Below are positions 1-47,300 of a stretch of 64,000 nucleotides of DNA, piece by piece. Each line of letters opens with the position of its first letter. The first letter of the stretch is position 1. The translations under genes were made by a program, and so were the position numbers. Origin of the DNA: Obrimoposthia wandeli (taxonomy: Eukaryota); NCBI GenBank assembly GCA_977020255.1, contig CDROCS010000294.1, positions 1 to 64,000 of the forward strand. The letters are read 5' to 3'. Below the pieces are notes generated by a model. That model was not told where the DNA came from, made no database searches, and saw only the letters and a program-made list of their open reading frames with translations.

Positions 1-830
1 AAAGATATGCAGCTACACACGCTTATTTTAATAATAAAATTGATTTCTATTATCATAAAGGATTGATGCAAATGGAACAGTTATATCGGATGATGATTGA
101 AAGAGATTGCCAGTTAAACAAAGAGATCGTGAGAACAAAGTTAGCATTAGCTATTACGAATCCAGACATGGCGGTAACCATTATTACCCTTGGATGAAGG
201 AGTGATTTGCTAAAACCATGGAGAAGTATTTGTATACTTACAGAATTAATAGTAGAGGTACAGTTGAGAAAAACAAATCGATGTACAGGTGAATTGGCAG
301 TAACGTATAATTTAAAAGATCTTTTGTTGAACCAATCACGAAATGTTACTTCAAAGACACCCCAACTAAAGAAATCAGCTGCTCTAATATAATGGCACCT
401 GAATATCAGATGACGAATAATCTATGGATAACGTTACCTGATCGGGAAGCCAACGAAAACCCCAGCGACTATTGATAAGAATGACGAATCTTAAGGTAAA
501 TGAAATTCCAAGCGGTGGAAAATATGGAGAACGCAAGTTGTACAATGAAAAAAGATTTAAAAGCGGCGTGGAACGAAATAATGTTTCCAGTAAGAAGAGC
601 CAGAGTACTTTGCGGAGATGGTACATCGAGCATTACCGCCAGGAGCGAGATATGCGAATTTCGATATGTTATTATCGCCAAGTCATTTCAGGAAGCAGCA
701 TGAACACTTAGAAAGATGTGGGGGAAATTCCTTGTCTTAGGACAACTATTTTCGGGTATCATAGGTATTTATGTTATAATTAAATTTGTGCAGGTAATTC
801 TTAGGTGTTGTCTACGTATAGTTTATACAG
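1..830 (+). pseudogene. C-terminal part of chuvirus-like envelope glycoprotein, frameshifted
   Basis: Manual translation across frames gives RSFVEPITKCYFKDTPTKEISCSNIMAPEYQMTNNLWITLP, KDLKAAWNEIMFPVRRARVL and KMWGKFLVLGQLFSGIIGIY. These match element B's FVEPITR...KEINCSNIMAPHY...IWITLP, EDIDKLRKEILFPQIRSRIL and KIWGKFLIFGQAFSGLVGIY. Confidence 0.88.
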
Positions 831-1259
831 GATAACCGGAATCACCTGGCAACTTATAATTGGATGTTTTTCCATTTTAGCAAAATATCTAATGCACCAT
901 CACGAGAACGAGTTGCGAGCCCTCAAAAGAAGGAACAACACCAAACGAGAACCATGATGAGAGAACCAAGAAACTATCGAGACGACAACGACGACGATAA
1001 TGATAGTCCAGAAGATATGCAAAAGATACCAGGAAAACCAAAGATTCCGTTACCAGACAAGGAAAAGTGGCGTTAAACCTATACCCAGCAGAAGGAATTG
1101 AAGGAAGAGAAGGAAAAATTCAAGAGAGGCATCTTAATGATAAGATGGCTAAAGTGAGAAACGCTACAGTGAAATTCCACAAGCAGAGGAAAAAGACAAA
1201 AGATAATTCCAGAAGAATTCTGAAGTCTAGGATATCAAACGAGAATCCCAATGCTCCTA

Positions 1260-1545
1260 CAAGTAGCAGTAACATTGAACGGAAGAGAGAATATCTTGCC
1301 GAAGTTGATACCGGATCTGCAGTATCATAGTACTGAGTAAAGAAATATCTTGTCATCAAAAGAATTAAGAGAGAAGTATGTCCTAGAAAACAGACATTTG
1401 TTAACGTGAACGGTACAGATGTAGTGTCGGAAGGAACGCTGAAATGTTCATTGAATATCGATGGAAGAGTATTACAGTTAAATGCTAGAATATTCACAGA
1501 TTGCGGTAGTCCAGTCATGCCATTGGGATGGACGTAATACGAATG
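1260..1545 (+). pseudogene. Retropepsin-like aspartic protease domain no. 1, frameshifted
   Basis: EYLAEVDTGSAVS (DTG at 1307-1315), followed in another frame by FVNVNGTDVVSEGTLKCSLNIDGRVLQLNARIFTDCGSPVMPLGW (flap and C-terminal strands). Confidence 0.75.
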
Positions 1546-1844
1546 TTTGAAGGAATAATTATACTACCAAACAACAAGAGTTATAAGAATGATGACAGTT
1601 CAGTGAGAGAGAGATAAAAATGTTGAGAGGACCTATAGTCGAAAAGGAAAAATGCACTACGTTCCGTATGGGAAGTTCGTACCCAGACAAAAACAGGAAG
1701 CGCTAGCAAAGTCGATACTTCACTACAAAATGTAAATTTCGGACCACAAGATACGACGAGGAGAAAAATAACATATGTAAATCTGTCAGAAAGGGATCCC
1801 ATGAGATTCGAGAGAGAAGAAAGAGGGCAGAAATATATTAGAAC

Positions 1845-2035
1845 AGTACTATTCAAAAGGAATGGCACGTAAATGGCAAGATCAGGTTTAGAAATGCTAA
1901 ACGCACGACAAGTAGTTATGGTCAGGAGATAGTAGTACGATGCGTATGGTGTAGAGTAAAGTTTAGAGAATGGGAACAGAATGAAAACCCAATGAGACGT
2001 CATAAAGAGATGCACCAAATTGTCCATTTCTTTTG
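1845..2035 (+). pseudogene. BIR (baculovirus IAP repeat) domain, frameshifted
   Basis: MARSGL... then VVRCVWCRVKFREWEQNENPMRRHKE/APNCPFL: exact C-x2-C-x16-H-x6-C spacing after one frameshift. Confidence 0.8.
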
Positions 2036-2224
2036 AAACTGAAAACGTCAAACGTACCAGAAATCAAACGGGAAAAGCACCCGATTTCGATTACAGTGAT
2101 GGGATTCCAAAGGAGAATCAGCTCTAATAACAGGTATTAGAGTAATAACGAATAGTCGAATTGAAGATATATTCGAAGTTATGCGAGAAGTGAACGAATG
2201 TGACGAACAGTATCAGTAATGCTT

Positions 2225-2395
2225 TCGAAGATCCAAGACTTAAAAATTGGCAAAAAGGGACTTTTTATAAAAAGGATAGTAAAGACGTAATTAAATGCCA
2301 CAAGTGTAAAAAGAACGAATTATCGACAGATACACTCTGGAGCTACCTAAGAAAATTTTGTACACATCATGAATTTTTGCGAATTTTGTACTTCT
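2225..2395 (+). pseudogene. Second, degenerate BIR-like domain
   Basis: RLKNWQKGTFYKKDSKDVIKCHKC resembles the BIR motif GFYY-x-G-x2-D-x-V-x-C-x2-C. The His/Cys half cannot be recovered cleanly. Confidence 0.45.
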
Positions 2396-2684
2396 AAAAA
2401 ACAAAATAAAGCAAAAAGAACAGAAAACCGAATGTATAATCGAATACCAAATCACACGAAAAGAGATTTTGGCTCAACAAGACACACCGGTAGTGTCATT
2501 CGTGAGAGGGTTATATATCCAAAAGAAGCAGAAAGAATCAGAGAGAATTGGTAGAATTAAAAATAAAAACTACGCTTGCGAAACGGATACGGATCGATTT
2601 TTGAATACTGCGAGATAAAGATGACAGTACAATTGAAACAAAGAAAAAGAGTACATAAATGAACTAGAATACGTACTAGAAGAT

Positions 2685-2815
2685 CCGGAATGCGCAGTTT
2701 GCATGGTTAACAAAATAGAAGTTGCCTTTCTACCATGCGGACATGTAGAACATGTCGGAGATGTGCGAATGAAATGGTATCATGTCCAATTTGTCGAAGA
2801 ATAATAGATCGACAA
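2685..2815 (+). pseudogene. IAP-type C3HC4 RING finger, one frameshift
   Basis: ECAVCMVNKIEVAFLPCGHV + RTCRRCANEMVSCPICRRII, typical of IAP C-terminal RINGs. Confidence 0.85.
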
Positions 2816-2919
2816 GTGAGAAACATTAGATTTCACTATCCAAATATAGGAAGTGGACTGACAGAGTGTAATAATTCGATAAATACAATATACCATATGG
2901 GAAACATAAATGGGGCACA

Positions 2920-5900
2920 GCGACCAGCAGCTATCATTAGAGTAAATAATTTAAGAGTAAAAGCCTTAATCGATACAGGTGCTGTAGCTTCAATAGTAAG
3001 TGAATACTGTTTGACAGAGGAACAGAAACGAACAATGGCAGAACCAGATGAATTTTGGTATCGGTCAATGGAGACCCTGTAAAAGTGACGGGAATATTAC
3101 CATGTACATTTATAATTGGCCGTACTACGATTACCTTACCAGTTAGAATCATGAAGAATGTCCTGAACCTACAATTTTAGGAATGGATGTATTATCACAA
3201 CTCAAAGGGATAAGTATTGATTTACAAGATCCAAGATTGAAGGATAGCACATCAAACAGACAAATAAACCAAATTGATGTAATTATAGAATCCCTATAAA
3301 AATCGGTATTAAAGATCACAATTTCTCATTCAAGGTCACACATTATCAGAAGATAAAGGACCAGTTGTGTTCGAACCATCACGAGATTTCATAGAGAAAT
3401 ACGAATTACCAGTTGTGAGTACAGTATGCCTGATCGAAAACCATAAAATACCAGTTAGACTGATGAATACAACCAACAATGACATTCTATTATACAGAGG
3501 AATGAGGTTGGGAAAGATAGCACAAATGGAGAATCCCACAGTGTGTGCTATGAAACTCGATAAAGACACGAATGATTACGAAGAAATAGTAATCCAATCA
3601 GAAAGACTGACAACTAGAGAAAAACAATTACTTGACCTAATACATAAATTTCCGAAAGTAATTGCAAAAAATCCATATGACATAGGAGAAACACCTGTCA
3701 TAAAACATACAATACCACTGACAGAAGACAAAGTAGTCAGAAGAAGACCATATCGAGTACCATTACAATTACAAGATGAAGTAAAAAGTCAGATCGAAGA
3801 TATGTCTAAAACAGGAGTAATTAGACCGAGTGTTCGGCAGTGTCAGCAGCTGTGGTGTGGGTAAAAAAGAAGCAGCGGAAAATGGGGTTCTGTATAGATG
3901 TCAGAGAACTGAACAAGATCACAAGAAAGATGTGTATCCACTACCTAGAATCGAAGAGATGCTCGATAAATTGGGTAATTCAGATTATTTTACAACATTA
4001 GATTTGCAGAGTGGATACTGGCAAATCGAGATAGAGAAAGAGGATAAACACAAAACAGCCTTTTCCTGCGGAGATGGATTATACGAATGCGAAAAGATGC
4101 CATTCGGACTGACAGGAGCTCCAGCAACATTTCAGCGTTGCATGAATTTTGTACTCGCATCGTGTGCAAACACGATGGTTTATATCGATGACATAATAAT
4201 ATTTTCGAAAACGTTCGAAGAACATTTAAAAATCTTGAAGTTGTATTTAAAAGACTGGAAAATGCTAAATTAAAAGTTAAACCTACAAAATGCGTATGGG
4301 CTAAAGAGCGAGTAACATTTTTAGGACATATAGTATCGAAAGGGCATTCGACCTGATCCGGCAAAAGATCGAGAAGTAAAAGCGCATTTAGCGCCAAAGA
4401 CTGTTAAGGAGATACAGAGTTTTTAGGTCTGGCGAATTATTATAGACGATTTGTTGAACATTTTTCAGATATAGCAACACCATTGAGAAAGTTGACGAGA
4501 AAAAGATGAGAAGTTCATATGGGGAGAAGAAGCCCAACAAGCGTTCGAGCATTTAAAGAAAGATTGATAAAAGCACCGATATTAGCGTTTCCAGATATAA
4601 ACCGACAATTCATACTCATGACAGATGCAAGTAACTATGCTGTAGGAGCAGTATTGGGACAAGAGGATGACGAAGGAAGAGAACACGTCATTGCGTATGC
4701 GAGTAGAGGATTAAACAGAGCCGAAAGAGGATACTCTGTTATCGAAAAGGAATGTCTAGCCATAGTGTATTCATGTAGAGCAAGTACAGACACTATTTGC
4801 TAGGACAAAAAGTATTCACTGTATACAGATCACAAACCACTACAGTTCTTATATAAACATAGAGATGAGATGAGTAGATTAAACAGATGGTTTCTAAAAT
4901 TGGCCGAATTCGATCTAGAAATCCGTTATAGAACCGGAAAGTCGAACGGCAACGCAGATTGTTTGTCGAGATTGACAAATGTAGACGAAAGAAACATAAT
5001 TCCAGAAGAAGATGAAACCAATGACCAAAAGGAGAAGCAAATCTACTGACGATTTTGCTAAAGACGAGGTAAAAATAGACAAAGAGATCATCAAAGAACA
5101 GAAAGAAGATGAAAGAACTGAGTCTAATCAAAGAATTGTTGGTGAAAGGAGATCTAAACGATGAAATGACGAAGAAATACTCGATAAAAGAAGGAATCTT
5201 GTATATTGTCAATAATGTCGGAAAGATAGTAGTAGTAATTCCGAAGTCATTGAAAACAGCAGTGATGATCCAGTATCACGACGGAACACTAGGAGGACAT
5301 CTGTCAGGGCGAAAGACAATAGCCAGAATCAAAGAAAGTACCATTGGGATGGTATGGAAGACGACATAAAACAATGAATTGTAAACAATGTAAAGTGTGT
5401 TTAACCAGAAAAGACACCGGAACTCGTACTAAAGTTCCGTTGAAACCAATACCAGTTCCCTTGGCACCAATGGAATTCACAGCGATGGATATATTGGGAC
5501 CATTGAGAGAATCAAGTAAAGGAAACAAGTATGTCATAGTATTTACGGATTACATGACGAGATGGGTAGAAGCATATCCCATGCAGAACCAGAAAGCTGA
5601 AACAATAGCGCAAATCTTGGTGGAAGAGATAATATTTCGATACAGGTGCCTAGAAAGTTGTTAACGGATCAAAGGAAAAGAACTTCACTGGAGAAGTCAT
5701 AAAAGCAGTATCGAAGATATTCGGAATTATGAAGTTACAAACTTCACCATATCACCACAGACAGATGGTCTGGTAGAAAGGTTTAATAAAACTTTATGTA
5801 TGATGGTACAATCCTATTGCTCAGACAAGCAAGAGAGGATTGGGATAAATATTTACCTTCATGTTTATATGCTTACAGGAATTCAGTTCGAGGCGACAGG

Positions 5901-6205
5901 TCACACACCATTCTATCTGATGTATCTCAGACAGAACAATATGCCGATGGATCTGGAGTGGACCGAGCCAACATCTCAGTACCTAGAAACTGAACAATAC
6001 ATTGTCGTCATGAAGGAAAGATTACAAGATGCTTGGACCAAAGCCGGATTGAAGTTGAAATTCAATCAAAGAAGGTTACAAGGAACAATACGACAAAAAG
6101 CAAAACCACATGAATTTAGAGTCGGAGATCAAGTGATGATATTTTATCAGTCATCGAACCAGGTCTATCGTTTAAACTTCATAGACCATACAAAGGACCA
6201 TACAA
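2920..6205 (+). pseudogene. pol: Ty3/gypsy pol (protease no. 2, RT, RNase H, integrase), many frameshifts
   Basis: VKALIDTGAVAS; YPLPRIEEMLDKL, TLDLQSGYWQIE, MPFGLTGAPATFQR, YIDDII; LMTDASNYAVGAVL, YSVIEKECLAIV; GGHLSGRKT...CKQCKVC; MDILGPL, FTDYMTRWVEAYP; GPY motif near 6195. Confidence 0.95.
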
Positions 6206-6206
6206 G

Positions 6207-7634
6207 GTGATCCAGACAACTTCAACAAATTTGAAAGTAATCAACGAAGAGAATCGGAACAAGGAACCGATGATTGTACATGCAAATCGATGCAAATTAG
6301 TACCAAATAAAGATAATGCGTCACGATATGAGTTAAGATCACAGAAATCGAAATCGAATACCAATACCATTAAACTTACACGAATGGTAAGTGATCGGAA
6401 CTACATAAACATGATGACGAGTGGTAGCAAGGAAAAACCAGCGAGAATTGGTATGCTCAGAATGAAGTACCAAGAGGAAAAGGAAGTAATCCGACACATC
6501 GCACCACAAGAGATATTAGAAGAAGACGAAGAGATAATAGTCGTTTTCGAAAAAACACAACCAACAGATGTAGCTAAAGAAGTCATTGTGAAAGATGCAC
6601 TGACAAACGAATTTCTGTGCGAACTTAGAGTGTCATATTACGACGGAAATACATTAGTCGCATCACTTTATCAAAATTCCAATGTGTTTACGACTGAGAA
6701 AGTGATAATCGAAATCACATTGACACCAAACATAGTTGCATGGCAGAACTATGACAGTACTGAAGCAGGACTAGCCAGTCAGGAAGAGAAGGAACCGGCC
6801 GGTGGTCACATACTGCATGGTACACCAACAGGACTCAAACAAGAATACCACGATGTAATAATGGTATTACGTAATTCACATGGGAAAAGAGATATCATGA
6901 GAGTCCATTTAATCGACGCTGACACTGAAAAGATAATTTGTCAGATGGACACTAAATACTTTGATGGAAAGACAATTGTATGTTGTATACCAGAATCTCA
7001 CCGGTTAGAGACAGATCAAACGGAAGTATCTGTAAGGTTGAGCGTAATAGAAGGATTCCATTCGCCAACCCATCCGGAAGTGACTAACAATAAAATCATC
7101 AAAGCAACGGCAGAGTTACGCATTGACAGCGGATACCGGAAGTGGGAAGCTAAAAATAAAAAGCCACAAAGAATCAATATGATCCGAGAACAAGTGACCA
7201 ACTCAATCCAGCCAAAATATCATGCTGAAATAGTATCATCCGCGCCAAGTGTAATCACATCGATAAACGACGAAATTATAATTTTACTAAAAAATCGATG
7301 GCCGTCATCAACTGAGATACGAGTAAACTTAATTAATTATGCGAAAACACCGATATCTAAGCTGAATGTTACCTATTTTGATGGATTGTCCATCATGGGT
7401 AAATTGGAAACAATTGTCATGTGCTACGGAGCACAGTTCCAAGTTGAGATACTTAAAGATAGTGTAATACCGTATCCGATTCACAAATACGAAGGGGAAA
7501 TCAATCCAATTATTCTAACACCTTCATTAATTTCAGTCAGACAGACATACCGGAATACCCTTCGAGCGAGTCTAGTGAAGACAGCGAACCGGAAAGTAAC
7601 GATACAGAATCAACAGAATCCGAAGATAACATAA
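6207..7634 (+). CDS. Integrase C-terminus fused to three ~80-aa repeats (TIG/IPT-like Ig fold, inferred)
   Basis: HANRCK...RYELRS integrase tail, then three repeats with conserved I-x4-P, [DE][EV]I[IM][VI][VLF] and Y[YF]DG at near-constant spacing (about 6486-6722, 6807-7049, 7227-7457). An open acidic frame from about 7540 links to the next ORF by one frameshift. Confidence 0.7.
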   Translation: MIQTTSTNLKVINEENRNKEPMIVHANRCKLVPNKDNASRYELRSQKSKSNTNTIKLTRMVSDRNYINMMTSGSKEKPARIGMLRMKYQEEKEVIRHIAPQEILEEDEEIIVVFEKTQPTDVAKEVIVKDALTNEFLCELRVSYYDGNTLVASLYQNSNVFTTEKVIIEITLTPNIVAWQNYDSTEAGLASQEEKEPAGGHILHGTPTGLKQEYHDVIMVLRNSHGKRDIMRVHLIDADTEKIICQMDTKYFDGKTIVCCIPESHRLETDQTEVSVRLSVIEGFHSPTHPEVTNNKIIKATAELRIDSGYRKWEAKNKKPQRINMIREQVTNSIQPKYHAEIVSSAPSVITSINDEIIILLKNRWPSSTEIRVNLINYAKTPISKLNVTYFDGLSIMGKLETIVMCYGAQFQVEILKDSVIPYPIHKYEGEINPIILTPSLISVRQTYRNTLRASLVKTANRKVTIQNQQNPKIT

Positions 7635-7654
7635 TAGAGCGATTCGGAAGAACC

Positions 7655-9637
7655 ATGGAGGTTGAATTCGCTAAAGAAAGCAGAAAAAGACAAAACATAG
7701 AATTCGTGAAACAGAATATACAAGAAAGACGAATTAAATCTGCAGAAGAGACCGAGTCGGAAGAAGACTCAACAAAGGAACAGACATCAGAGACAAAGAT
7801 GAATACCTCTCCAGCAATACGAATGCTGAGAGGAAAGAAACTGGCAAAACTAACCAACATCGACGAACAGATAGAGAAGAGATTAGAAAGATTAAAACTT
7901 GAAGAGTCAGAATTAATGCCACAAATGAGTGAGATCATTCCAGGTAAGTTGTACCTCGGAAATGTGGAGGATGCAACAGATGAAAAGAAACTGTTGGAAC
8001 AAGGGATAACATACGTGATCAACGTTACAATGAATCACAAATCACAATATCAGACGATCAGAGCTATGACATTAAGAGTAAAAGACTCAATGGACGCTAA
8101 TCTTCTCGAATGGTTTGTAGAAACAAACGAAATACTTCACAGAGAACTCCGGAACAAAGGAAAAGTGTTGGTACATTGTCAGAAAGGAATTTCTCGATCA
8201 GCAACCCTAGTATTAGCATATCTAATAAAGACTAGACGAATGCAGGTACTAGAAGCGTTAAAATACCTACAGGAGAGAAGAAGTATTGCAAACCCAAATC
8301 TTAATTTTTTGGGGCAGTTGGCAAATTACCAACTTCTGTTGCAAGAACAAAGACGGATGGACGACATTCCTGAGGACCCAAAGGAAAAGAATTTCCTTCA
8401 AGCATTATCACTGACTGGGTTATTTTTAGCCGGAGTCGACAAAATTACACAAATAATGCCAAAAGTATTTTTATGTCATCCAGGAGATATAGATACTGCT
8501 GGATTAAAGTTCCATAGTATCAACCGAGTAATCAACATTGTTGAAATCGGAAACGAGATAATTAGTCTGTGTCAAAATACTGAAAATGACACCACTCGAT
8601 ACATACATGCTTCCAATCGAGAGATAAACGATGCACAACAACATCTGACGAAATTGACTCAAACCATCCAAGCTGAAGTCACAGAAGGAAACGGCGTTCT
8701 GATATATCAGAAAAAAGGTACAATGTTAGCGCCTACCATAGGTGTATCCTTGTTGGTAGAGTACCATGGTCATACGCCAGAAGAAGCGATGGTCTACATC
8801 AAACAGAATAGACCAAATACGGAATTCAAACCGTTACTCGTTCGAGAAATAGAGAAATACACCGAAAAGAGGAAGCAACAACGAGAAACAAATGAAGCTA
8901 CAACAACAGTGCCCAGCTTTCAATACCAAAGATTGCTAGCGATAGGCTTGTTAAGTTGTTTAATGCCGATAACGGGAGCACAAGAAATAGACTCCAACCC
9001 CGGAAATAGTTCCTGGTTCAACGAAATCCAAAATTACACCATACAGTACCATACACCGGCACTGATGATGCTATTAGTATTGTTAGGACTAATTGATGTG
9101 TGGATCATCCGAAAATGTATTCGATCTATGAGAACCGACAGTAAAAGATTTCAGTTTGTAAAGATGAAAAGACCAAATGGACCAACAAACAAAGTGCTTG
9201 TGTATCTAGACGAAAGGATCGAAGACAACATAGTAAATGAAGCGATATTTTACCCACAAAACAGAATACTGAATCAATTCCGAATAGATTACGAAGCTGA
9301 CCGACAGCACACACTTGACCAAATATCAACAACATTCGCCGGATGCAAGCGGAGAAAACGAGTTGTAAAGGAAATACAAAAAGATGCTGATACAAAAGGA
9401 CCAACGTATATATTCGATGGCGATGTCATCAAAACACGTGAGTATGGAAGTAAGAGAGTGATAATTGAAACAATGGAAGGACATAAAACATGCTTGTCCG
9501 CCAAAAATGGATTCGGAAAGTTGACGATACAAGGTAAACCGGTACAGTTGATTATCGGAAGAGATGGAATCGAGGAGATGTCAAAACAACGACAGACACG
9601 ATCAGAAACAGATATCTCTCAAACGATTGATAATTAA
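7655..9637 (+). CDS. Polyprotein segment: active dual-specificity phosphatase + pseudophosphatase + signal-like and TM segments
   Basis: DSP1 about 7919-8338 with VLVHCQKGISRSATLVLAYL and NPNLNFLGQL. DSP2 about 8441-8860 keeps the fold motifs, but its P-loop is VLIYQKKGTMLA. Hydrophobic stretches at about 8930-8983 and 9056-9109. Confidence 0.9.
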   Translation: MEVEFAKESRKRQNIEFVKQNIQERRIKSAEETESEEDSTKEQTSETKMNTSPAIRMLRGKKLAKLTNIDEQIEKRLERLKLEESELMPQMSEIIPGKLYLGNVEDATDEKKLLEQGITYVINVTMNHKSQYQTIRAMTLRVKDSMDANLLEWFVETNEILHRELRNKGKVLVHCQKGISRSATLVLAYLIKTRRMQVLEALKYLQERRSIANPNLNFLGQLANYQLLLQEQRRMDDIPEDPKEKNFLQALSLTGLFLAGVDKITQIMPKVFLCHPGDIDTAGLKFHSINRVINIVEIGNEIISLCQNTENDTTRYIHASNREINDAQQHLTKLTQTIQAEVTEGNGVLIYQKKGTMLAPTIGVSLLVEYHGHTPEEAMVYIKQNRPNTEFKPLLVREIEKYTEKRKQQRETNEATTTVPSFQYQRLLAIGLLSCLMPITGAQEIDSNPGNSSWFNEIQNYTIQYHTPALMMLLVLLGLIDVWIIRKCIRSMRTDSKRFQFVKMKRPNGPTNKVLVYLDERIEDNIVNEAIFYPQNRILNQFRIDYEADRQHTLDQISTTFAGCKRRKRVVKEIQKDADTKGPTYIFDGDVIKTREYGSKRVIIETMEGHKTCLSAKNGFGKLTIQGKPVQLIIGRDGIEEMSKQRQTRSETDISQTIDN

Positions 9638-11079
9638 AACCCTTTGCAAAAGGTCAGTCAAGGCCCTGTGCACCGTTGCACAAGGATTGATCTATGGAGT
9701 AGTAATTGGATTGGTACTGCAAGCCATGCCAACCAGTAAAGCCGAATTGATGACACTATCCGAATATAATTTACATTTGAGAAATCTAGACAACACCCTA
9801 GAAATAATCAAGACATCCCACAGTAGAGCCGTGATGATCATGTGTGTAAAAGGATGTCCAGGACAGAATGTGTATAGTCCCAGCGACCGAAATGATAACA
9901 CTTAATGGACATTATGGAGTTAGCGTTGTCACATGTGAAGACTACATATTTGGACAAACTAAAATAGTGCTTCTCAGTGACACGTCCAACCAAAGTGCAC
10001 ACAAATTTAAAATATTAACCATCAAGAGTAAAGGAATACCAGCAGTACGTTATGGTATTCTAGAATTGGTTAATCCAATACTCGCACTGATCATTGGATT
10101 TATAATATTAATATTACTCATCTTGTTTTGTTGTTCAAAGATAGAGTCGAGATCAAAAAAGAAACGCCATGATCTCGCAAGACGAACAGGTCAAATGAAC
10201 TTACAAAAATTCAACACAATAATACCAAGACCACCATTCCTAGATGAACCAGCACCAGAGTACCAGCCAACGATATACGAACACATCGAGGAAAGACCGT
10301 ACTATATGAGTAATTTGACTTGTTTCATTGAAGTTCCTGAGTTTAGGAATCGAACGATCATAGGAATCATGCTGATCGTACAAATCACCACTACCAAGGC
10401 TAGTTATGAGATCATGATCAGTAAATGGAGACAAGACGTAATACGGGCAATATACATAGAAATTCCCCTACTAAAAACAAATCACGTAGTAGACATTCAT
10501 CTACAGACGTCAGCAACTGACAATATCGATCAGAAATTGTATGTCATCCGACAGGTCAGAATAAAAATCGACCAACATACACCCGTTTACAAATTAATAT
10601 TATTGCATCATGAAAGAGTGTTATACCTACGGATAACAATATCAAAGAGGAAGCGGATTATCCAAAGTATCCGAACAAAGTCATTAATATTACCTAGAGA
10701 TGAGCGCATCTGGAAAATTGTCGACAGGATTATGATCACAGGTAGACGACGTAAAGCCGTATGGAATTCCGTTAGGATATTTTTCAGATTGCTAGAAACT
10801 GACAGCGTGACAGTAATGTGTCCCAACCCAGATGGCGTAATCAGATTCGAAATCCAAAGCCAAATGTTAGTACCACATTTTAACACAGAATGTCTGTGTA
10901 ATCGAATTGCAAATAATTCTACAGAGACCGCAACCGTATTCATGATAATAATAGGTGATATATTCTACATAACACTAAGATACCAGAACCGTCGATTTCG
11001 CAGATACGGTATAAGTATCAAACCCAGGAAAATCATTCCCAGAAGACCAATCCTAATAGTCAAAAGAAGGCAAAGGTAA
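9564..11079 (+). CDS. Polyprotein segment(s) with signal-peptide-like and transmembrane segments, product unknown (two frameshifted ORFs)
   Basis: GLIYGVVIGLVLQAMPTSKA; TM PILALIIGFIILILLILFCC followed by a basic stop-transfer stretch; TIIGIMLIVQITTTKA. ORFs 9564-9905 and 9868-11079 overlap. Confidence 0.6.
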
Positions 11080-11671: not shown

Positions 11672-11706
11672 CTCATGTAGAAATTAATCATCATCATGTA
11701 TTTAGA

Positions 11707-12006
11707 ATGGCCGAAGAATGCCCAATATGTTTAGAAGATCTAACCGAACGAAGAACAAGACCCGAAACCTGCAACCATTTACACCACGAGGAATGTTTAT
11801 CGACATGGATCAGAACTTATGGACAGTTCGGACACCCAACATACCCTCGTTGCCCTATATGCAGAAGACAATTCGCAAGATTCGTCATGTTAGAACCCAA
11901 CCAAAGGGATGTATATGTACAGGTGGTATTCTGCTGGAAGAATTTCGGAGAGTGTTGGTGTTATTACTGTTTGTCAGATCGACAAAATCAGACCACTTTT
12001 GTGTAA
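11707..12006 (+). CDS. RING-H2 protein 1 (99 aa) with C-terminal Cys cluster
   Basis: CPIC-x13-CNHLHHEEC-x3-W...CPICR, then CWKNFGECWCYYC. Confidence 0.88.
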   Translation: MAEECPICLEDLTERRTRPETCNHLHHEECLSTWIRTYGQFGHPTYPRCPICRRQFARFVMLEPNQRDVYVQVVFCWKNFGECWCYYCLSDRQNQTTFV

Positions 12007-12066
12007 AGATCACACAAACACCAGTCCTCAATCGAGCCCAAATTCAACATCAACCCTCCCACAGTA

Positions 12067-12369
12067 ATGTCTGGAGAATGTTCCATCTGCTACGAGAGCA
12101 TCGTGGACTTCTACACCAAGCCCAACAACTGCGACCACCTTTTCCACGTCGAATGCCTCGAGACGTGGATCCCCATCAAACAGCAACAACCCCTCGACTT
12201 TCCAACCTGCCCGATGTGCAGAGCGACCTTCTCAGTACACTACGTGTACAACCAAGACAGCCTCCAAGCAGTGGTACCCATCGTACACTGCTGGAAAACC
12301 ATCTGCGATTGCTGGTGCTCGTTCTGCGTGGAGGAGCGAAGCACAGGCCAGCCCAATCCCCAGCAATAA
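12067..12369 (+). CDS. RING-H2 protein 2 (100 aa) with C-terminal Cys cluster
   Basis: CSIC-x13-CDHLFHVEC-x3-W...CPMCR, then CWKTICDCWCSFC. Confidence 0.9.
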   Translation: MSGECSICYESIVDFYTKPNNCDHLFHVECLETWIPIKQQQPLDFPTCPMCRATFSVHYVYNQDSLQAVVPIVHCWKTICDCWCSFCVEERSTGQPNPQQ

Positions 12370-12703
12370 TCGAAGGTAACTTTCTGACTTGAACGTGACA
12401 TCATGAACTACCCTGTGTATCGCATACCGCGATAAATTAGCTACCATAATTGTAATCATAATTATATAATCTTGTGAACTGTAAATTGACCATTACCATT
12501 TTTATGTATGATGTTTAACTGAAATTGTAATTATTATACTGAATTTCTAAAAAATACAATTTTTATGCTTAGTGTGAATGCGTAAACATGCCTAAAATCG
12601 AAACAAAACTCGGTAGGATTAGATAACTAAGAATTCATTTTGAAATAAAATTTAAATTAACGATGAGAACGGTGAACCCCAAATTAAAAGGAGTCATTTT
12701 CTC

Positions 12704-13240
12704 ATGCAGATGTTGTGCTCCGTATGCATGGAGAAGATTTGGGCGGTATCAGCATCCCCTGTCGGCTGCCGTCACAAATTTCACGAGGAGTGCCTCTATT
12801 TGTGGACCAAGGTTCGAACCTCCGGACAAATCACCTGTCCACTGTGCCGGACACCCTTCGCCAAATGGACACTCCAGAGCCGGGGAAGACACAAAGGCAC
12901 CCGATCGCCTGCCAGCTGCATTGGTGGCATCCATTGCCGATGCTACGTGTGTCTCGCACGCCGGCGCGACACACAACTGGGCGTCCGCGAGAGATGGCGG
13001 TCTAGTCGAGACTGCCACTCGTGGTTCCAGGCCAGACGGCACTGGATTGAAAGCCATAACATGAACAGGCAGCACTTCGACCTGTTCATCGACAGCCCGC
13101 ATTTGACCCGGAGCCAGCAACTCCATTTGTACAACGGGGACAGTCCGTCCTTTCCCGACCTTCCCCTGGAACAGGTTCTACGCTACCTGGCCAGTCGGAA
13201 CCAGCCAACAATTACAATTGATTTGACATACGACAATTAA
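12704..13240 (+). CDS. RING-H2 protein 3 (178 aa) with Cys cluster and C-terminal SIM-like motif
   Basis: CSVC-x13-CRHKFHEEC-x3-W...CPLCR, CIGGIHCRCYVC, ends TITIDLTYDN. Confidence 0.88.
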   Translation: MQMLCSVCMEKIWAVSASPVGCRHKFHEECLYLWTKVRTSGQITCPLCRTPFAKWTLQSRGRHKGTRSPASCIGGIHCRCYVCLARRRDTQLGVRERWRSSRDCHSWFQARRHWIESHNMNRQHFDLFIDSPHLTRSQQLHLYNGDSPSFPDLPLEQVLRYLASRNQPTITIDLTYDN

Positions 13241-14011
13241 TCCTTTCCTCCCTTCTTTCCTTCCTGACCTTGGTTATCGTGTAATTTTGTGTGTAAATTT
13301 TTAGTTGTGCATGGTTAATAGTGTATACTTTGAGACTTGCTCCAAATTATATATTATGTTTCCCACTGGAAAACCGAGATTTTGAAAAAATTGTTTTTGG
13401 GCATGTTTGTTGAGGTTGAATGATTGATTTTGTAGGGATGAACCTAAAATCAACAGCCAAAGGCTTATTAAGTAAAATCGATACGTTCCGGGGACGTAAC
13501 TTTTTTGGAACCCCCGAGGTATGTTAAGGTTGAGAATTAAGAAAATTAAATATTTTAGTTGATTAAATACTAAAATAAAAAATCCTTGAAAGCAAGGTCG
13601 AAAATTGAATTAAAATATTAATTTAAGTTTTAGAAGTAAAATTAGTGAAATTTAGGGTAAATTAGGAGGACCACGAAGGTCGTGTATTATGCGAAAATGT
13701 ATAAAAGTTTAAAGTTAATTAACCAAAAGGAACAAAATAAGAATTAATTAGAAGAAAAACGGTTAATTACAACCGTCGCTCAAGGATCCCCAAGGTAAGC
13801 ACATTTTCGTGCAATAAACTAAATTTTGTTTGCAGCTGTCAATTGATTGACATTGCAATATTCTCTCCGGGTTCGCTGAAGAAAGACTCAACGCAGCCGT
13901 CAACTGATTGACGTCCAGTGCCAATATATAAAGGCAGGTTTTCCAGCTAGAATCACAAATACGGAATCGCCAGAAGAAACAAAGACAGGAAGCAACAATC
14001 CCCTCGTCAGA

Positions 14012-14591
14012 CGAACCGTTGATTGAAGAGTCGAACCGTTGATTGAAGAGTCGAACCGTTGATTGAAGAGTCGAACCGTTGATTGAAGAGTCGAACCGTT
14101 GATTGAAGAGTCGAACCGTTGATTTAAGAGTCGAACCGTTGATTGAAGAGTCGAACCGTTGATTTAAGAGTCGAACCGTTGATTGAAGAGTCGAACCGTT
14201 GATTGAAGAGTCGAACCGTTGATTTAAGAGTCGAACCGTTGATTGAAGAGTCGAACCGTTGATTGAAGAGTCGAACCGTTGATTGAAGAGTCGAACCGTT
14301 GATTGAAGAGTCGAACCGTTGATTGAAGAGTCGAACCGTTGATTGAAGAGTCGAACCGTTGATTGAAGAGTCGAACCGTTGATTGAAGAGTCGAACCGTT
14401 GATTGAAGAGTCGAACCGTTGATTGAAGAGTCGAACCGTTGATTGAAGAGTCGAACCGTTGATTGAAGAGTCGAACCGTTGATTGAAGAGTCGAACCGTT
14501 GATTGAAGAGTCGAACCGTTGATTGAAGAGTCGAACCGTTGATTGAAGAGTCGAACCGTTGATTGAAGAGTCGAACCGTTGATTGAAGAGA
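14012..14591. repeat. 20-bp minisatellite (CGAACCGTTGATTGAAGAGT) x29 inside LTR A
   Basis: Exact 20-bp period. Three units carry a G>T change (at 14121, 14161, 14221). Confidence 0.97.
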
Positions 14592-14702
14592 CGAACAGTC
14601 GATTTCGAAGACGATTCCGCCAGGCTCGCAAACACCACATACGGACCCTACACCGGACGTCCCACGAGTTGCTGTAACTGGTAAGAACACAGACTAGGTT
14701 CA

Positions 14703-15140
14703 TTCATTGCCCCTAGTAGGCAATTAGGATATATTCATTACCCCTAGTTGGTAATTCTATATTTTCTTAATCATACACAAATTCATTGCCCCTAGCTGGT
14801 AATTAGGATCACTGTCTCTTTACCACAATCATTGCCCCTAGTTGGTAATTAGGATCGGACCTTTATTCATTGTCCCCAGCGACAATTAGGAAACCTACCA
14901 GACGTTTTTTCCCGTAAGATTCATTGTCCCTAGCTGACAATTAGGTTCATTCATTGCCCCTAGTTGGTAATTCGGATAAATATTCATTGTCCCTAGTAGA
15001 CAATTCGGTAAGACTCATTGTCCACTAGCTGACAATTCGGTTCGTTCATTGTCCGTAGTTGACAATTAGGAGTAAGTTTTTATTGTCATCTTGACAATTA
15101 GGTTTTTAGGAGATCCCTTGTCTACAGTAGACAATTTGGG
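14703..15140 (+). repeat. Array of 12 short inverted-repeat (hairpin) units with variable linkers inside LTR A
   Basis: Consensus TTCATTGYCCCTAGYWGRYAATTMGG. 6-bp stems with 5-8 nt loops; linkers about 4-29 nt. Confidence 0.9.
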
Positions 15141-18100
15141 TCAAACATACACAGAGAGAGTAAGGAACAAAGAAACATTTAGCTAGAGATAAGAAGTAGG
15201 AGCGAAGAAAATTAAGAGAGTTGCGTTATAGATTAACCAACCTGAGTAAGAAGACTAAACCTAAGAAACTTAATCACCTGAACGTAAAATCGATACGTGG
15301 TTCATCCCCACTTCTTGTAGAGACTCACGGAAGTCCTTTAGGAATTTTATCATACTTTTTAGAAATACGTACATAAACGTATTGTGGTATTAGTTACGTG
15401 AATTTTGAATAAACAATTTCCTACATTAGAACAAGTTGTTTTTACACCCTTCAGACTAAGAGACATCAAATCAAACACCTTCAGATAGTACAAGAGATTA
15501 GGCAACCATAACACTAAGTAGGCCACGACCAACTTTAAGACCTGCTTCTAATCGAACTCACGTTGGGGCCCTCCGCACACTAAGAGGCTCTATACCAAGT
15601 TTCGTATAGAAACCCCAACAATTTCGCTATAAATAGTACGAGGATTTTCTCGACATTTAAATATTTTATTAAGAATTTAAATATAAAGAATAAATTAGGT
15701 TTCATCGATTCCTTCCGAAAAAAACACCACTTTTTGTTAACAAGTGTAATAGGCAAAAATCTAAAATAAAATTTATAGATATTTTTAAAATTAACTAACC
15801 TTTTTTTTAATAAGATCTTTATTGTTCTTTTTCAAAAATATATTTTGTCAAGAGCTAAATATAAGTACTATAAATAGCTATATTTTAAAGAATGCAAATA
15901 TAAGCAGAAATATACATAATATGTATAATATAGATACAAAAATTATTTAATTTTTACAACCAAATAATTTATTTAAATAACGTAAATACCATTTAAAAAA
16001 TCTCTGTACAAAAATGAATCTAGAAAAGTTCCCTTGTCTACTGTAGTCGACTAAACTCATTTGATTTGTTTAGATTTATCACCAACCAGGTATTCATTAT
16101 GAGCCAAATTAAAGTTTACAATATCGTCGTAATTTGATTGGCTAATAGTTATTTTAAAAAATCTGGGTTTCTCTTCCCTAATGCATGACGTCATGCAATC
16201 AAGAGGCAACCTGTGAGTGTGTGTAGTAATAATCAATAATAAAGAATGCTGCCGAATCAAGTGTAGCAGACAGTGAATTTTTTTAGTCTTCTGGTGCCTG
16301 AAGGGACTCATTTGAACAAGCTCTAGCATCTTTTAAAACAAGCTAAATATTTGAAGATCTGTTGACTGCATGGGAATATAACATAGTGCAATGGACTACT
16401 CGTGTGGTTTCGCGCCTGGGTTTGGTGGTTCTTTGAGAAGGGGTGGTAATATTCGAAAATCGTTATCAGTTTCTTCAAAATACATTGGAGGAGCAGATTA
16501 TGGTAAGAATTTATTTGGGTGTTTTGAGGAAAATATTTAACTTTAAAACTATTTTGTAATTAAAAGTTTATTATAATCCCATTTTGAATCTTTGGATTTT
16601 ATGTCTCGTACATCTCGTACATCGCTACATAACATAAAAGTAGCTGGGTGTTTAATTGTTTAAAATATTTACTATTTTATTTACTTATCTATCTGTGATT
16701 CGTAAATTTTGGCAGAGCTCTTATTTCTCCATAGAAATCAATTTTCGGCTTCGAATTTTAAGTTTTATTGTTTTCAGCTTATTTGCTCTGCATCAAAACT
16801 TTAAATAAACTATTTTTATAACTTTAAATTTAGGGATTAAGTGAGAGAATGTCAACCAGAAATTCGAATACTAAAACTATGAACCATATATACATCTAAC
16901 ATTTATCATTTCAGTAATTGTCGTAATTCTGTGTAGAGCAGCCGTAGACATTATCAAATTTTTACGTTTAAATTAAATTTATTCTCATTGTGGATTTATA
17001 ACAGTATCCATCTATAACTTTTGAGCTGCGTAAAATTCCATTGCGTGTCACCAGTTTGAGACAAATTTTTTTTCTTCTGCATCATACATTTTATAGTTTT
17101 TGTGCAAAATTACTGTAATTTTCTTCTATGTGATGTTCAATTTATCAATATATTTTATTTTCTCATCGGATTTATCAACTACAGAATGTTAACCAACTAG
17201 ATACAACAGAAGTTATCAGAGTGGAAATCGCAAATCTTCTTGATAATTACCAAATATTCTCAAAGTTAATTGTCAGCACCAATGTTAAAATATTAGTGCC
17301 CTAAAACGTTTTTATTGTAAATAAGTAATTTTGAAAATTTTAAAATATCCCTTAAAATATTTTTTGGGAAACAGGAAATTTTACGTTATATTTGCCTTGG
17401 TAAAGCTTAGTAAAATTTTCAAGTAGAAAATTGTTATGAGATCAAAAACAATCATTTCAGTAAACTATAATCTGTATTTTTATTTAATAAATTACAAAAT
17501 AAGTGCTGTTGAAAATCAATATTGCATATTCTGATTTGTAGACAAGCTCCAGCACAAATTTTGCTACTTTAAAAGCGCAATAAGGAAATTTTCCATTCTT
17601 CCGCCTATTGCATCCCTCACTTTCATTGTTAAAATATGAATTGTGTGTGTGGTAACTACGGGGGATGGTGTTAGACTTCCAAACAGGTTAATGGGATCCG
17701 AGAGAGTGGGATATTTTTAATGCAATATCCTTTTATAATGTTATTTTATGGAAATGAATAGTCTATAAACAAAAAAACAGGAAATCTATTTTATATCCTC
17801 TATATCTTGACATCACAAAACTCCACTTTGATATGAAAGCTAAACTTAGAGCACCACTGAAGATCAAATCACTAAAATATATTAATAGCAATTTTTTTCA
17901 TTGTGACCCATGTGGTTGATGATTACTAGTTAAAGCTTGAATATTTGGTTGTATTGAGATTAGTAATTTGAGCGTAATTATTACGTTTATTGATTGGAAA
18001 TAAATTATATTCTTTGCTTGAATATAAATTATATACAAATATCCAGCTTCAACCAAATAATAACTGAAAAATACTCAAAGCTGGAGATAAATGTTCTTTT

Positions 18101-33865: not shown

Positions 33866-33954
33866 ATAGAAATGATATGTGATGGAGTGGTCAACAATAA
33901 AGATGAGAAATAATAAAAAGGATATTTGTTAATAAATAGAATAATAAGTAATAA

Positions 33955-34858
33955 TGTTATATTTTGTTAATTTCCAATATATTCAGTTTTTCCAAAAATA
34001 ATCTGCAACTAATTTCTTGTATAATTGAATAGTTTTCTATAAATCTGAACGAATCTGAACAATTTGTTTTTGAAAATATATTTGACGGTATATAAATGGA
34101 TAAAAATTTTCAGTGATAATAATCAAAATGGGATATATTTTTAAGAAAAATGAAATTGAATTATGGCAATACAAATCTGTCAGAGTGATAATTTTTAATA
34201 GCCAATAGAGATAAAATTTTTCCGTGTGTCCATTATAATGACGACGATTGCTATAAATAGCAATCGTCCAAATGTCAACTGGGCAAGGCTGATTCGCATA
34301 ATGTCAGAGCAGAAAGAAACGAAATCCATGCGAGATCGACGATTGCTATAAATAGCAATCGTCTAAACACAGTTTTCGGTATTTTTTTAATCTTGGGGTT
34401 TCAATCAATGGGTCCATGCAATCTTGTCATTAAGGGAATTTAGTTGCCATCAGGAGGGACTGCGAGTCGGCAGAGTGCGACCGATGGAGCACTGGAGGGA
34501 GCCAAGCGCACACAAACTCCCGGCACGCACGCACACACACATAGGATGATGCCGGCCGACCGGGATGACGTACACAGAACTGCGGACTGCGGAACCGGCC
34601 GAGAAAGGGCAAACCGCCGCCGCATCTGCTGCAAAGCTGGGCGAAAACCCCTGGCGGCCAAAACCACCCTTTATTTTCATCACTAAAAAAAAACAGCCGC
34701 CCTCCCGATGAGCCTGGCAAGGCGAAACGGGCTAACAACCCGTCGGAGGCTGAGATTTGATAAACCTCCCTAATTGTGGGTACTTTAGATAATTTTAAAG
34801 AATGTCAATTTAAATTGACTGTAATTTATTTTAATTAATTTTAATTAAAGACCCAACA
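33955..34858 (-). repeat. 3' LTR of element B
   Basis: Direct repeat of 47348-48251. Confidence 0.97.
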
Positions 34859-35129
34859 ATCCTATGGGGGTATACAAAGTCAGACCTCTGACGTTTTATA
34901 TTTAACAAAGATGTTTGTTTAATTGTTAAAATAATCATTGTTAAACATAGTTAAAAAAAAATTGTCATCATTTAAAATATGGATTCATTCATGCTATAAA
35001 ATTATTTTTATGCTTTGGATAAAAATCAGCCATAAACACGATTACTCTAGTAGTGTTTACTTTTTTTATTTTCTGTTCACTCTGATTTTTCTCGAAACAT
35101 TTTCTAAAATAATAAATTTTCCTACCACT

Positions 35130-36305
35130 TTAAATGTTGTCCTCAGAATCAGAGGAGGTGAGATCTATAACTTCATATAGGTCATTACTGGCAATGTAGG
35201 GGAGAGAGACAGTCAGTCCACATTCTTTTATTAGCTCTTGCTCTTTATGGAGGAAAATTTTTCGGGTCCATTGCGTGTCTATGAGGCTAGAGTGGGTATT
35301 CTTTTGTATTTCTTTATTGAAATACCACGAAACTATTCGAGCAAGTCCGGCTTGTTCTCTACGGTTCATTTCCATTTGAATAGTTTGTGTTGCCCCTAGA
35401 TCAACCGTGTGCGAAAAATCGTTTTTTTGTAATCCTAAAACTTTGAGATCGTTGGATATTCCCGTCCCTACGAAAATATTGTCTCTTAGTAAGGATTGGA
35501 CACGTTCTAACACTTCGACAGAATCAGGTTGGTTTCTTAACTTCCGTTCATTAAGGCCCGTTATTCTTGTCACATAATTCCTGATTCTGTCTCTGCTATT
35601 GCATTTCGTATCCAACACGATCTGTCCGCTTCTATTCATTATTGTAATGCTAGCTAGGTGGGTTTGTTTGTTCATTTTTACTACCATTTCACAATCGACA
35701 AAAAATATTTGAGGATTGTTGGGTATGATATTCAAATGGCAGACTTGAACGGGATTAGGTCGCACATTTTGCTCCATGAAAAATATGTTATTTCCACCCG
35801 AAAAACGAATCATCAAATCGGGAGTTATTTGATGTCTCATTAATCTGTAAGAGTGGTTTTGCAGGAGAAGGATAGAAAAATGTTTGCTTTTCCTGTGTTT
35901 TAAAAATCCACGGCCTTTTGCTACGTGAATCTCAATGTCCGTGCATATTGGTAAGAAATTCATCAACTCAAACAGTCTTTTTTCTGTTGGCTTTTTACTA
36001 TTTATGTTGAGAATTATACTTTGTCTTGGGGTGTCTCTTAACTTAATGCTATTTGGAAGCTGGGTCTGATTGTCAAAAAGCTTTATTCCGTAATGGTTAT
36101 GGAAATACCTTGTTCCAAACTGTCTTATTTTTCCATAAAGGAACTTAGCCATTTTCGCCATTTCTGGACGTTGTTCTGCTAATTGGACCGACTTCTCTCT
36201 CTTTCCCGCGGCACCACCTGCCAGTTCAAATGAGGATTCGTGCTTGTGGGTTCCATCTGTAGGGTATACAGATATAGTAAAAAAATGTTGATCTTTTACA
36301 TGCAA
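35130..36305 (-). CDS. DEDDh 3'-5' exonuclease (ISG20/REX4-like) with unknown N-terminal half and C-terminal SIM-like motif
   Basis: ExoI FFVDCEMV, ExoII FVGTGISNDLKVL, ExoIII THSSLID; NYVTRITGL; C-terminus EVIDLTSSDSED. Confidence 0.9.
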   Translation of the reverse strand: MHVKDQHFFTISVYPTDGTHKHESSFELAGGAAGKREKSVQLAEQRPEMAKMAKFLYGKIRQFGTRYFHNHYGIKLFDNQTQLPNSIKLRDTPRQSIILNINSKKPTEKRLFELMNFLPICTDIEIHVAKGRGFLKHRKSKHFSILLLQNHSYRLMRHQITPDLMIRFSGGNNIFFMEQNVRPNPVQVCHLNIIPNNPQIFFVDCEMVVKMNKQTHLASITIMNRSGQIVLDTKCNSRDRIRNYVTRITGLNERKLRNQPDSVEVLERVQSLLRDNIFVGTGISNDLKVLGLQKNDFSHTVDLGATQTIQMEMNRREQAGLARIVSWYFNKEIQKNTHSSLIDTQWTRKIFLHKEQELIKECGLTVSLPYIASNDLYEVIDLTSSDSEDNI

Positions 36306-36683
36306 ATATAAAAATTGTCAACTGTCTATCAAATGAAATGTTCCTGTTAGTTATTTTGTCTCTTTTTGTTAATCAAAAATCTGTAAATCGTTTTTGTCTT
36401 TATGTAACAAGTTTAACAAACAAGGTATATAAATAAGATATGATTTTTTCATTTTTCAATATATATTCTTATTACTGGTGTTACCAATATCAATATATAC
36501 ATATCTATACTGGTATATTCATTTTTTACCTATTCTTAATTTTATTATTACTATTTCAACTAAAGTTAATGAATATTAATACCCATTCATAAACGCATTT
36601 CCTCTCCAAAAACATGCCAAAAGCCCAAACTCATTCTCAATTTTCTTTTATTTTATATTTTATTTTACTCACTGGGGATTTTA

Positions 36684-36992
36684 CTAATTTTCACACCCGG
36701 AATCATCGCTTTCTCCCGGTTGAAATCCCATCAAACGATTAATTACTGATCTCAATGATACGAGAGAGTTTAATGCTTCTCTGAGTCGTCGTACTAATAT
36801 TTCTTGGGTTGATTGGCTATATTCTAATCTTTCAATTGCAACGTCAAAAGCATTATTCATTCGTTCACATTCCATTTCCTTGTCTTTTAAATACGATCTC
36901 AGATTTATATTCTCTATTAACAATTTATTTTCCCATTTTTTCTGTCTCTTATATCTTCTTCTATTATTCTGTACTAATTTTGAATTTCTCAT
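36684..36992 (-). CDS. Small basic/coiled-coil protein (bZIP-like), 102 aa
   Basis: NNRRRYKRQKK basic stretch followed by heptads (LLIENINLRSYL...LEYSQSTQEILVRRLREALNSL); clean ORF between AT-rich gaps. Confidence 0.5.
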   Translation of the reverse strand: MRNSKLVQNNRRRYKRQKKWENKLLIENINLRSYLKDKEMECERMNNAFDVAIERLEYSQSTQEILVRRLREALNSLVSLRSVINRLMGFQPGESDDSGCEN

Positions 36993-37063
36993 TTTCTAAA
37001 TTGTTAAAAAGTTTTTAAGTCTTATTTTAAAAAAAAAAAATAAATAAATAAATCTTTTGATTT

Positions 37064-37864
37064 TTACAAATCAGTGTTGTTTTTCTCTTTGTGCTTATAG
37101 TTCTTGATTACCGTATCTATTGATGTATTGGATGAATTTGTACCACTTGGTATTAGGGATGTTATGAGTGGACCTGGTGGTCCATACAGTTTGTTTAAGT
37201 GAAATGATTTTTTAGTTTTAATTCTTTTAAAAGTTTTTATTTTTATTATTACTTTTATTAAAATGTTAAATATTTCGATTATTATTGCTATTATTATCTT
37301 AAATTCTGTATGATATATGTTTTGTGAATGATTTCGTTGACTAAAAAATATTATATGTTTTAAGTTCATCGATTTTGATGAATTTATTGTATTTTTTAAA
37401 AAGGTTGACTGGTTTTGTATGTTTTCTTTAGAAATGATTGATGATATTTTCTTAAATATTTTTGTTGTATATTGTGTTAAATATATTTTCATTACTTTTG
37501 TTGATTTTAATATAGGTTCTTTTATTTTTATTATTAGCCAACTCCCGCAAAAAAGAGTTGGTTGAAACATTTTTGATATCTTTTTTCCTATTATTTCTAA
37601 AGTAGTTATGTTTTTGTAAGTATTCAAAATGTGTCCCCAACTTCTATACATCATTGGTTTATTTGTGATTACATATTCTCTATATTGTATTATTATTCTC
37701 TCTGGATATGTTATATTTTTTATGGTTAAATTTGTTTTAGATTGTGTTTTTTCTAATTGTTTTTCTGAGTTTTTCCAAAAATTATCATTATGTCCTCTAT
37801 ATCTAATTCTAATGAGGGCTTTATCTAAGTCGTCTATTTTTAGTTGAAATTCCCATTTTATCAT
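37064..37864 (-). CDS. C-terminal continuation of the pol polyprotein (FN3-like ectodomain part + TM + tail), detached by a tandem duplication
   Basis: Begins with MIKWEFQLKIDDLDKALIRIRYRGHN, identical to the end of the pol ORF; hydrophobic FKIIIAIIIEIFNILIKVII. Confidence 0.75.
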   Translation of the reverse strand: MIKWEFQLKIDDLDKALIRIRYRGHNDNFWKNSEKQLEKTQSKTNLTIKNITYPERIIIQYREYVITNKPMMYRSWGHILNTYKNITTLEIIGKKISKMFQPTLFCGSWLIIKIKEPILKSTKVMKIYLTQYTTKIFKKISSIISKENIQNQSTFLKNTINSSKSMNLKHIIFFSQRNHSQNIYHTEFKIIIAIIIEIFNILIKVIIKIKTFKRIKTKKSFHLNKLYGPPGPLITSLIPSGTNSSNTSIDTVIKNYKHKEKNNTDL

Positions 37865-42500: not shown

Positions 42501-42509
42501 TGTATTTTT

Positions 42510-47024: not shown

Positions 47025-47300
47025 AAGATTAATGTAAAATCCGACCCAATAATATTAATATATTAAAATGTAACACAAAAACCAAAAATACAATAAAATC
47101 AAAATAATAAACTATTCTAAGATTAATGTAAAATCCGACCCAATAATATTAATATATTAAAATGTAACACAAAAACCAAAAATACAATAAAATCAAAATA
47201 ATAAACTATTTCAAGATTAATGTAAAATCCGACCCAATAATATTAATATATTAAAATGTAACACAAAAACCAAAAATACAATAAAATCAAAATAATAAAC
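47025..47300. repeat. 94-bp tandem repeat x3 in the leader of element B
   Basis: AAGATTAATGTAAAATCCGACCC recurs at 47025, 47119 and 47213. Confidence 0.92.

Follow-up and report, generated by a model that had tools for sequence, protein, structure and literature searches.

Whether a retrotransposon can carry its own SUMO-targeted ubiquitin ligase (STUbL) is the question raised by ORF3, a short reading frame at positions 12704..13240 of the forward strand in a 64,000-nucleotide stretch of the Obrimoposthia wandeli genome (contig CDROCS010000294.1, positions 1 to 64,000; hereafter the window). A sequence-only reading of this DNA had described a RING protein that ends in a SUMO-interacting motif (SIM) and had proposed an anti-silencing factor. 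The tail-bearing form of ORF3 indeed appears to combine a RING finger with a selected, SIM-b-like terminal motif, which would amount to the minimal architecture of the ICP0 type.

ORF3 is the last of three RING-H2 accessory reading frames upstream of the 3' LTR of element A, a giant Burro-like Gypsy retrotransposon with thousands of copies. Three full genomic copies span 23.2-24.1 kb with TG...CA LTRs of about 2.2 kb, and a target duplication of 4 bp flanks two of the three; together with the order of protease, reverse transcriptase, RNase H and integrase these are the characters of Ty3/Gypsy elements. The 3' LTR in the window (13522..15620, forward strand, about 2.2 kb, TG...CA) contains variable internal tandem repeats, whereby a 20-nt tandem array at 14009-14611 occurs in part of the copies, with other sequence taking its place elsewhere. 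The remainder of the polyprotein (1..11079, forward strand) comprises the end of a fusion protein, BIR/RING, protease, reverse transcriptase, RNase H, integrase and a dual-specificity phosphatase, and is in this copy frameshifted and truncated at the contig start. Another copy encodes, in a single frame, a zinc knuckle, a Monjiviricetes-type fusion protein, two protease-like domains, BIR, RING, reverse transcriptase, RNase H and integrase, with PF24664, PF00653 and PF13920 found together in one stretch of 3,332 aa. The IAP-like BIR and RING and the two protease-like domains lie between the fusion protein and the reverse transcriptase (about 1840-2800 of the window), while the region downstream of the integrase (7463-9637) encodes the phosphatase domain (PF00782, E=2e-41) and, behind it, another phosphatase-like stretch and hydrophobic segments. 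One complete element A, its LTRs 99.9% identical, has also been observed nested within a copy of a second element, element B.

The two preceding reading frames, ORF1 (11707..12006) and ORF2 (12067..12369), both on the forward strand, are paralogous to the first 90 residues of ORF3 including a second four-cysteine cluster (hhalign E=5e-10 and 3e-12, respectively), and lack the tail. All three share a conserved junction at their start (11700-11709, 12058-12069 and 12695-12712), with a YAG not more than 2 nt before the conserved ATG in 88/90 copies of ORF1, 86/88 of ORF2 and 89/90 of ORF3, the latter throughout every lineage. For ORF3, a pyrimidine-rich tract with a terminal CAG (12695..12709, forward strand), which would resemble a splice acceptor, abuts the ATG at 12710; this ATG is kept in 88 of 90 copies, and the ATG at 12704 is not conserved. 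Based on the conserved YAG-ATG, the start of ORF3 is placed at 12710, giving a protein of 176 aa (residues are numbered here from 12704). The junctions suggest separate accessory mRNAs that would be spliced or trans-spliced.

The RING-H2 finger covers residues 5-48 (PF13639, E=1e-7; 12716..12847, forward strand) with the zinc ligands C5, C8, C22, H24, H27, C30, C45 and C48. These ligands and the residues W34, P46 and R49, which we take to be the E2-binding residues, are nearly invariant among 48 tail-bearing and 44 tail-less copies, so that ORF3 possesses the intact RING expected of a STUbL. Downstream follow the second cysteine cluster (C72, C78, C80 and C83; 12917..12952, forward strand), common to ORF1, ORF2 and ORF3, and a P-x-[FY]-P-x-L-P-L-E motif with the last helix (13145..13189, forward strand), conserved in every allele. 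Judged by purifying selection, with dN/dS between lineages of 0.20-0.31, ORF3 is a genuine gene; residues 113-132 have accumulated 111 amino-acid versus 51 silent changes, and no positive selection is evident from pairwise ratios. None of 16 candidates outside its own genome was a homologue of ORF3, residues 55-178 had no match among 1.84 billion representatives, and matches in the ESM Atlas were confined to generic viral RING clusters (0.89-0.91). Equally, an AlphaFold model (mean pLDDT 63, pTM 0.38) recovered matches at the RING level only and none at E<=0.001 when used with Foldseek, with ICP0 of Equid herpesvirus at E=0.02; tail residues 169-178 were modelled as coil with pLDDT<50, in keeping with a linear motif.

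The frame translation of ORF3 ends in NQPTITIDLTYDN followed by the stop codon. The terminus TITIDLTYDN and its IDLT core, as first read, are thus present, but the pattern [VI]-[VI]-D-L-T under which they had been filed does not fit: the first core residue is Thr, giving T-I-D-L-T (13214..13228, forward strand), so that the strict SIM-b consensus is not matched. Across all six frames of the window [VI][VI]DLT matches once, in the exonuclease of element B. Six SIM patterns, taken from general knowledge, located no second site in ORF3, which differs therein from RNF4-type proteins with tandem SIMs, and few acidic residues follow the motif. By a post-hoc estimate, a given reading frame would have [IV]DLT among its 12 final residues in about 3e-4 of cases.

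Selection on the motif was assessed among tail-bearing copies. T171 and I172 are found in 49/49 copies, D173 and L174 in 46/49 each and T175 in 48/49, with flanking residues 170 and 176 varying among 6 and 5 shared residues, respectively. On a tree of 48 tail-bearing copies the TIDLT codons have undergone 6 amino-acid versus 31 silent changes, as compared to 463 versus 431 in the remaining ORF3 codons (Fisher p=1.5e-5) and 38 versus 33 in the flanks (p=1.8e-4). Pairwise pN/pS amounts to 0.00-0.10 for TIDLT and to 0.29-0.47 for the entire ORF3, and TIDLT ranks sixth of 172 windows by pN. Protein-level selection on TIDLT is hence seen in the tail-bearing lineages only, and this pattern argues for a functional peptide wherever it is present. 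Could the motif be a product of chance or a feature of the DNA without function in the protein? A whole lineage dispenses with the tail, as such an origin would predict, but the 31 silent versus 6 replacement changes and the 2-7 shared codons in use at each of the five positions (49 copies) largely refute it and make it highly improbable; a DNA-level constraint was rejected on the same synonymous variation. By parsimony, on the other hand, 21 of 172 ORF3 windows are as low in amino-acid changes as TIDLT, such that conservation indicates some function of the motif and does not identify which one.

It might accordingly be asked whether selection keeps the tail as a linear motif that binds something else than SUMO, with ORF3 an ordinary accessory E3. 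The partner could be a beta-strand-binding adaptor, a reader of C-terminal peptides or degrons, a CtBP-like reader of DL[ST], or a site within the proteins of the element, ORF3 included. The invariant Thr at the first core position (49/49) is off the SIM consensus, and the conservation of N178 (46/49) and of the stop position (42/44) fits recognition of a free C-terminus. I-D-L-T followed by an acidic residue at position 177 (D/E in 46/49) is, however, the exact SIM-b core. Position 171 is never Pro in 49 copies, in contrast to what the CtBP motif would demand, and a parallel SIM-like tail exists in element B. A partner other than SUMO is therefore considered rather doubtful.

This second tail belongs to an accessory DEDD exonuclease (35130..36317, reverse strand; PF00929, E=4e-10) which terminates in YEVIDLTSSDSEDNI, with VIDLT (35157..35171, reverse strand) followed by SSDSED. 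The initial observation that it ends in VIDLT plus an acidic stretch holds for the window, and the origin of the tail is separate from that of ORF3; as a general description of the family it is too narrow, with the strict VIDLT occurring in 13/48 readable copies. The core varies among copies: 30 close copies carry VIDLT (11) or AIDLT (19), while 20 further copies, 18 of them readable, carry VVNIC (7), VVDIC (4), VIDIC (2), VIDLT (2), AIDLT (2) or VVNLC (1). A hydrophobic core with an SSDSED-like stretch is nevertheless preserved in 48/48 readable copies. A SIM-like core with an acidic, serine-rich flank that apparently arose independently lends modest support to the reading of ORF3. Element B is a Gypsy element of about 14 kb (33953-48250, reverse strand) with near-identical LTRs and at least 150 copies; a fusion protein separates its gag from its pol, and 259 nt are duplicated internally at 37781-38298. 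Many matches to PF00929 in the assembly are intron-free and high-scoring, and a few of them have in-frame TGA, which suggests bacterial contigs.

A partner for such tails is available, as the genome encodes SUMO, with an exon nearest to named flatworm proteins (77-78%). The same SUMO exon occurs on two contigs; a NEDD8-like reading frame is located on another stretch, ubiquitin-like domains occur within long frames of what appears to be another retroelement family, and tandem ubiquitin-like reading frames split by stops are found in one further stretch. Complex prediction, performed without alignments on a 42-residue tail and a substitute SUMO sharing 78% identity with the host exon, gave no verdict on binding (0.44 versus 0.27 for the control). 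VDLT and VIDLT are the cores of SIM2/3 of RNF4 and of the PIAS SIMb, and RNF4-type SIMs with few acidic residues bind mono-SUMO very weakly and gain avidity by tandem repetition, according to the accessible part of PMC3901395. Literature searches on TIDLT together with SUMO, and on the SIM-b pattern, found no paper. A SIM of yeast Uls1 may have Thr at the first core position, which was not used as support. Taken together, the sequence features make binding of SUMO by the ORF3 tail reasonably probable.

How widespread the tail is depends on how copies are sampled. All 29/29 copies retrieved by ORF3 itself have the tail, an estimate which was rejected as circular, and copies were consequently chosen by matches to the fusion protein. 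Among 58 stretches downstream of such matches, 13 were unmatched in the ORF3 region, the anchor motif was missing from 10, and 35 were readable; 13 of the latter have the tail in frame, 16 stop 11 residues early, 4 stop 6 residues early and 2 are broken. When 29 copies were chosen by intergenic DNA, 2 had the in-frame tail, 22 were short, 4 frameshifted and 1 without anchor. The tail is present in an older subfamily (29 copies) and in another lineage, where 9 further copies show TIDLT (7), IIDLT (1) and TIDLI (1). Exact patterns detected at least 2,602 tail-bearing and at least 1,595 short copies genome-wide, with 0 and 11 matches, respectively, for reversed-pattern controls; these counts are lower bounds, the patterns recovering 61/75 and 32/41 known copies. 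The tail-less lineage thus makes up about 40% of pattern-matched copies, and the expectation that the motif be conserved across copies holds for two of the three deep ORF3 lineages and fails for the third, which is devoid of the tail.

On an unrooted tree of 34 intact copies, calculated with the tail excluded, the tail-less forms are split off by one branch (97/92) with one change. This topology and the stepwise lengths of ORF3 (176, 170 and 165) suggest that the tail-less allele arose by loss of the tail. The tail-less RING is still selected (226 amino-acid versus 264 silent changes). In age, elements without the tail match those that have it: four of five tail-less elements tried yielded an LTR pair, with identities of 100% over 1,929 nt, 99.8% and twice about 98%, compared to 99.0-99.9% in three tail-bearing copies. 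The tail-less version thus spreads equally well, from which it follows that the tail is optional.

The two forms differ in a peculiar manner. Young elements of both types are 98-100% identical on either side of ORF3 and 53-72% identical across most of ORF3; dS amounts to 0.02 in ORF1 and ORF2 versus 1.1 in ORF3. Equally, in 14 of 15 elements having both regions pS amounts to 0.36-0.64 in ORF3 and to 0.04-0.15 in the fusion region. The types are interleaved in an ORF1-ORF2 tree of 88 copies, with 11-12 changes, at least 4-5 of them required by strong branches; a single tail-less copy and two tail-bearing ones share the identical ORF1-ORF2 sequence. Identical backbones, a diverged ORF3 and interleaved types together show ORF3 to be a hyper-diverged locus that recombines and whose alleles are old, and, by these comparisons, two ORF3 alleles recombine into a shared backbone. 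Maintenance of both alleles might be ascribed to balancing selection driven by conflict. The trees are ladder-like in both ORF3 lineages.

How could a protein operate whose terminal motif is selected in one lineage and dispensable in another? ORF3 would be translated from a spliced accessory mRNA with a YAG-ATG junction, and its RING is a predicted ubiquitin ligase. The tail may dock in the beta2-alpha1 groove of SUMO, with substrate choice resting mainly on residues 53-165 and the SIM serving as an avidity booster, and the weak SUMO contact would confer a preference for SUMOylated forms of the target or for SUMO-rich nuclear sites. If the SIM is a mere booster, the tail can be lost while the RING stays selected. 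Alternatively, the tail might bind SUMO and serve just to localise ORF3, at nuclear bodies rich in SUMO or at SUMOylated proteins of the element, or to make it a decoy, with no ubiquitylation directed by SUMO. The single, weak motif, a similar motif on the element B exonuclease, which cannot be a ligase, and the selection on the tail-less RING would all be compatible with such a role. The STUbL activity of ICP0, however, is described in the accessible part of 10.1101/709485 as requiring just the RING and one SIM, and tail-bearing copies have kept the RING hallmarks intact; localisation or decoy function is thus seen as unlikely. A SIM activates Rad18 as well. By analogy, the tail-bearing ORF3 likely works like a single-SIM STUbL. 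The fuller reading, an accessory E3 ligase that, similarly to ICP0, likely reaches SUMOylated host proteins by one weak SIM, stands about evenly balanced. ORF3 is not classed as a member of the STUbLs, with the strict consensus and tandem SIMs missing and SUMO binding being a prediction.

Which host proteins would be attacked is a more tentative matter. In Drosophila, piRNA-guided silencing of transposons depends on SUMO (accessible part of 10.1101/533091), and PIWI controls BURRO1 in planarians in an account whose accessible part does not mention SUMO (PMC8532177), so that the link of ORF3 to silencing rests on other organisms. The anti-silencing role originally proposed, with the silencing machinery as target, is by this analogy conceivable and rather improbable. 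Element A itself encodes a phosphatase and an IAP-like module as well, and the IAP of Burro1 is reported to protect stem cells, as described in the accessible part of PMC13465017; proteins of stress response, apoptosis or immunity are therefore equally plausible targets. The complete scenario, whereby a retrotransposon-encoded, ICP0-like STUbL translated from a spliced mRNA removes SUMOylated piRNA or heterochromatin effectors, host-element conflict maintains, through recombination, two ancient alleles in long-term balance and a second family has independently placed a SIM on an exonuclease, may be entertained as a speculative proposal.

STUbLs of viruses are already known, as is cargo related to ubiquitin in giant Gypsy elements. 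A literature search for a retrotransposon-encoded STUbL or a combination of RING and SIM found no report, with the main Burro1 paper beyond the reach of the search. With its 176 aa and a natural SIM-less allele, the protein would lend itself to testing whether the SUMO layer of silencing is a point of attack for animal retrotransposons, in parallel to the attack of herpesviruses on PML bodies. Whatever the tail binds, highly diverged alleles (dS about 1.1) amid a homogeneous family (dS about 0.02 in the adjacent region) constitute an unusual long-term transposon polymorphism.

Among known systems, the fusion glycoprotein lying in frame between gag and pol, the BIR and RING, the giant polyprotein, the accessory reading frames and the thousands of copies of element A resemble Burro/GYPSM1 of planarians, as far as described in the accessible part of PMC6431247. 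Burro exceeds 30 kb in that source, whereas element A measures 23-24 kb with LTRs of 2.2 kb, and the phosphatase and the three 3' RING-H2 reading frames of element A are unmentioned in the same portion. Matches to MATH, BCL2, ankyrin and SUMO-like Pfam domains were absent from the scanned parts of element A, and no named Burro sequence was among the 120 reverse transcriptase matches listed. Rapidly evolving accessory genes that are in conflict with silencing by the host are equally known from VANC of Arabidopsis VANDAL elements; according to the accessible accounts, VANC are DNA-binding proteins of DNA transposons with demonstrated anti-silencing activity, which for ORF3 is only proposed. With RNF4, Slx5-Slx8, Uls1 and Rad18, ORF3 shares a RING and a (V/I)DLT-type SIM core, but in RNF4 the SIMs are tandem and N-terminal and the RING is C-terminal, whereas ORF3 has the reverse order and one motif, and, unlike in cellular STUbLs, its middle region is novel and without homologue in the searches made. 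ICP0 of HSV-1 is likewise the RING E3 of a genetic parasite with one SIM, functional in ICP0 and predicted in ORF3. The structural likeness of the two is weak and confined to the RING, which in ICP0 is of the C3HC4 type; where the SIM of ICP0 lies inside a large herpesvirus protein and is phospho-regulated, ORF3 would achieve a comparable combination within 176 aa, with a RING-H2 finger and a terminal motif.
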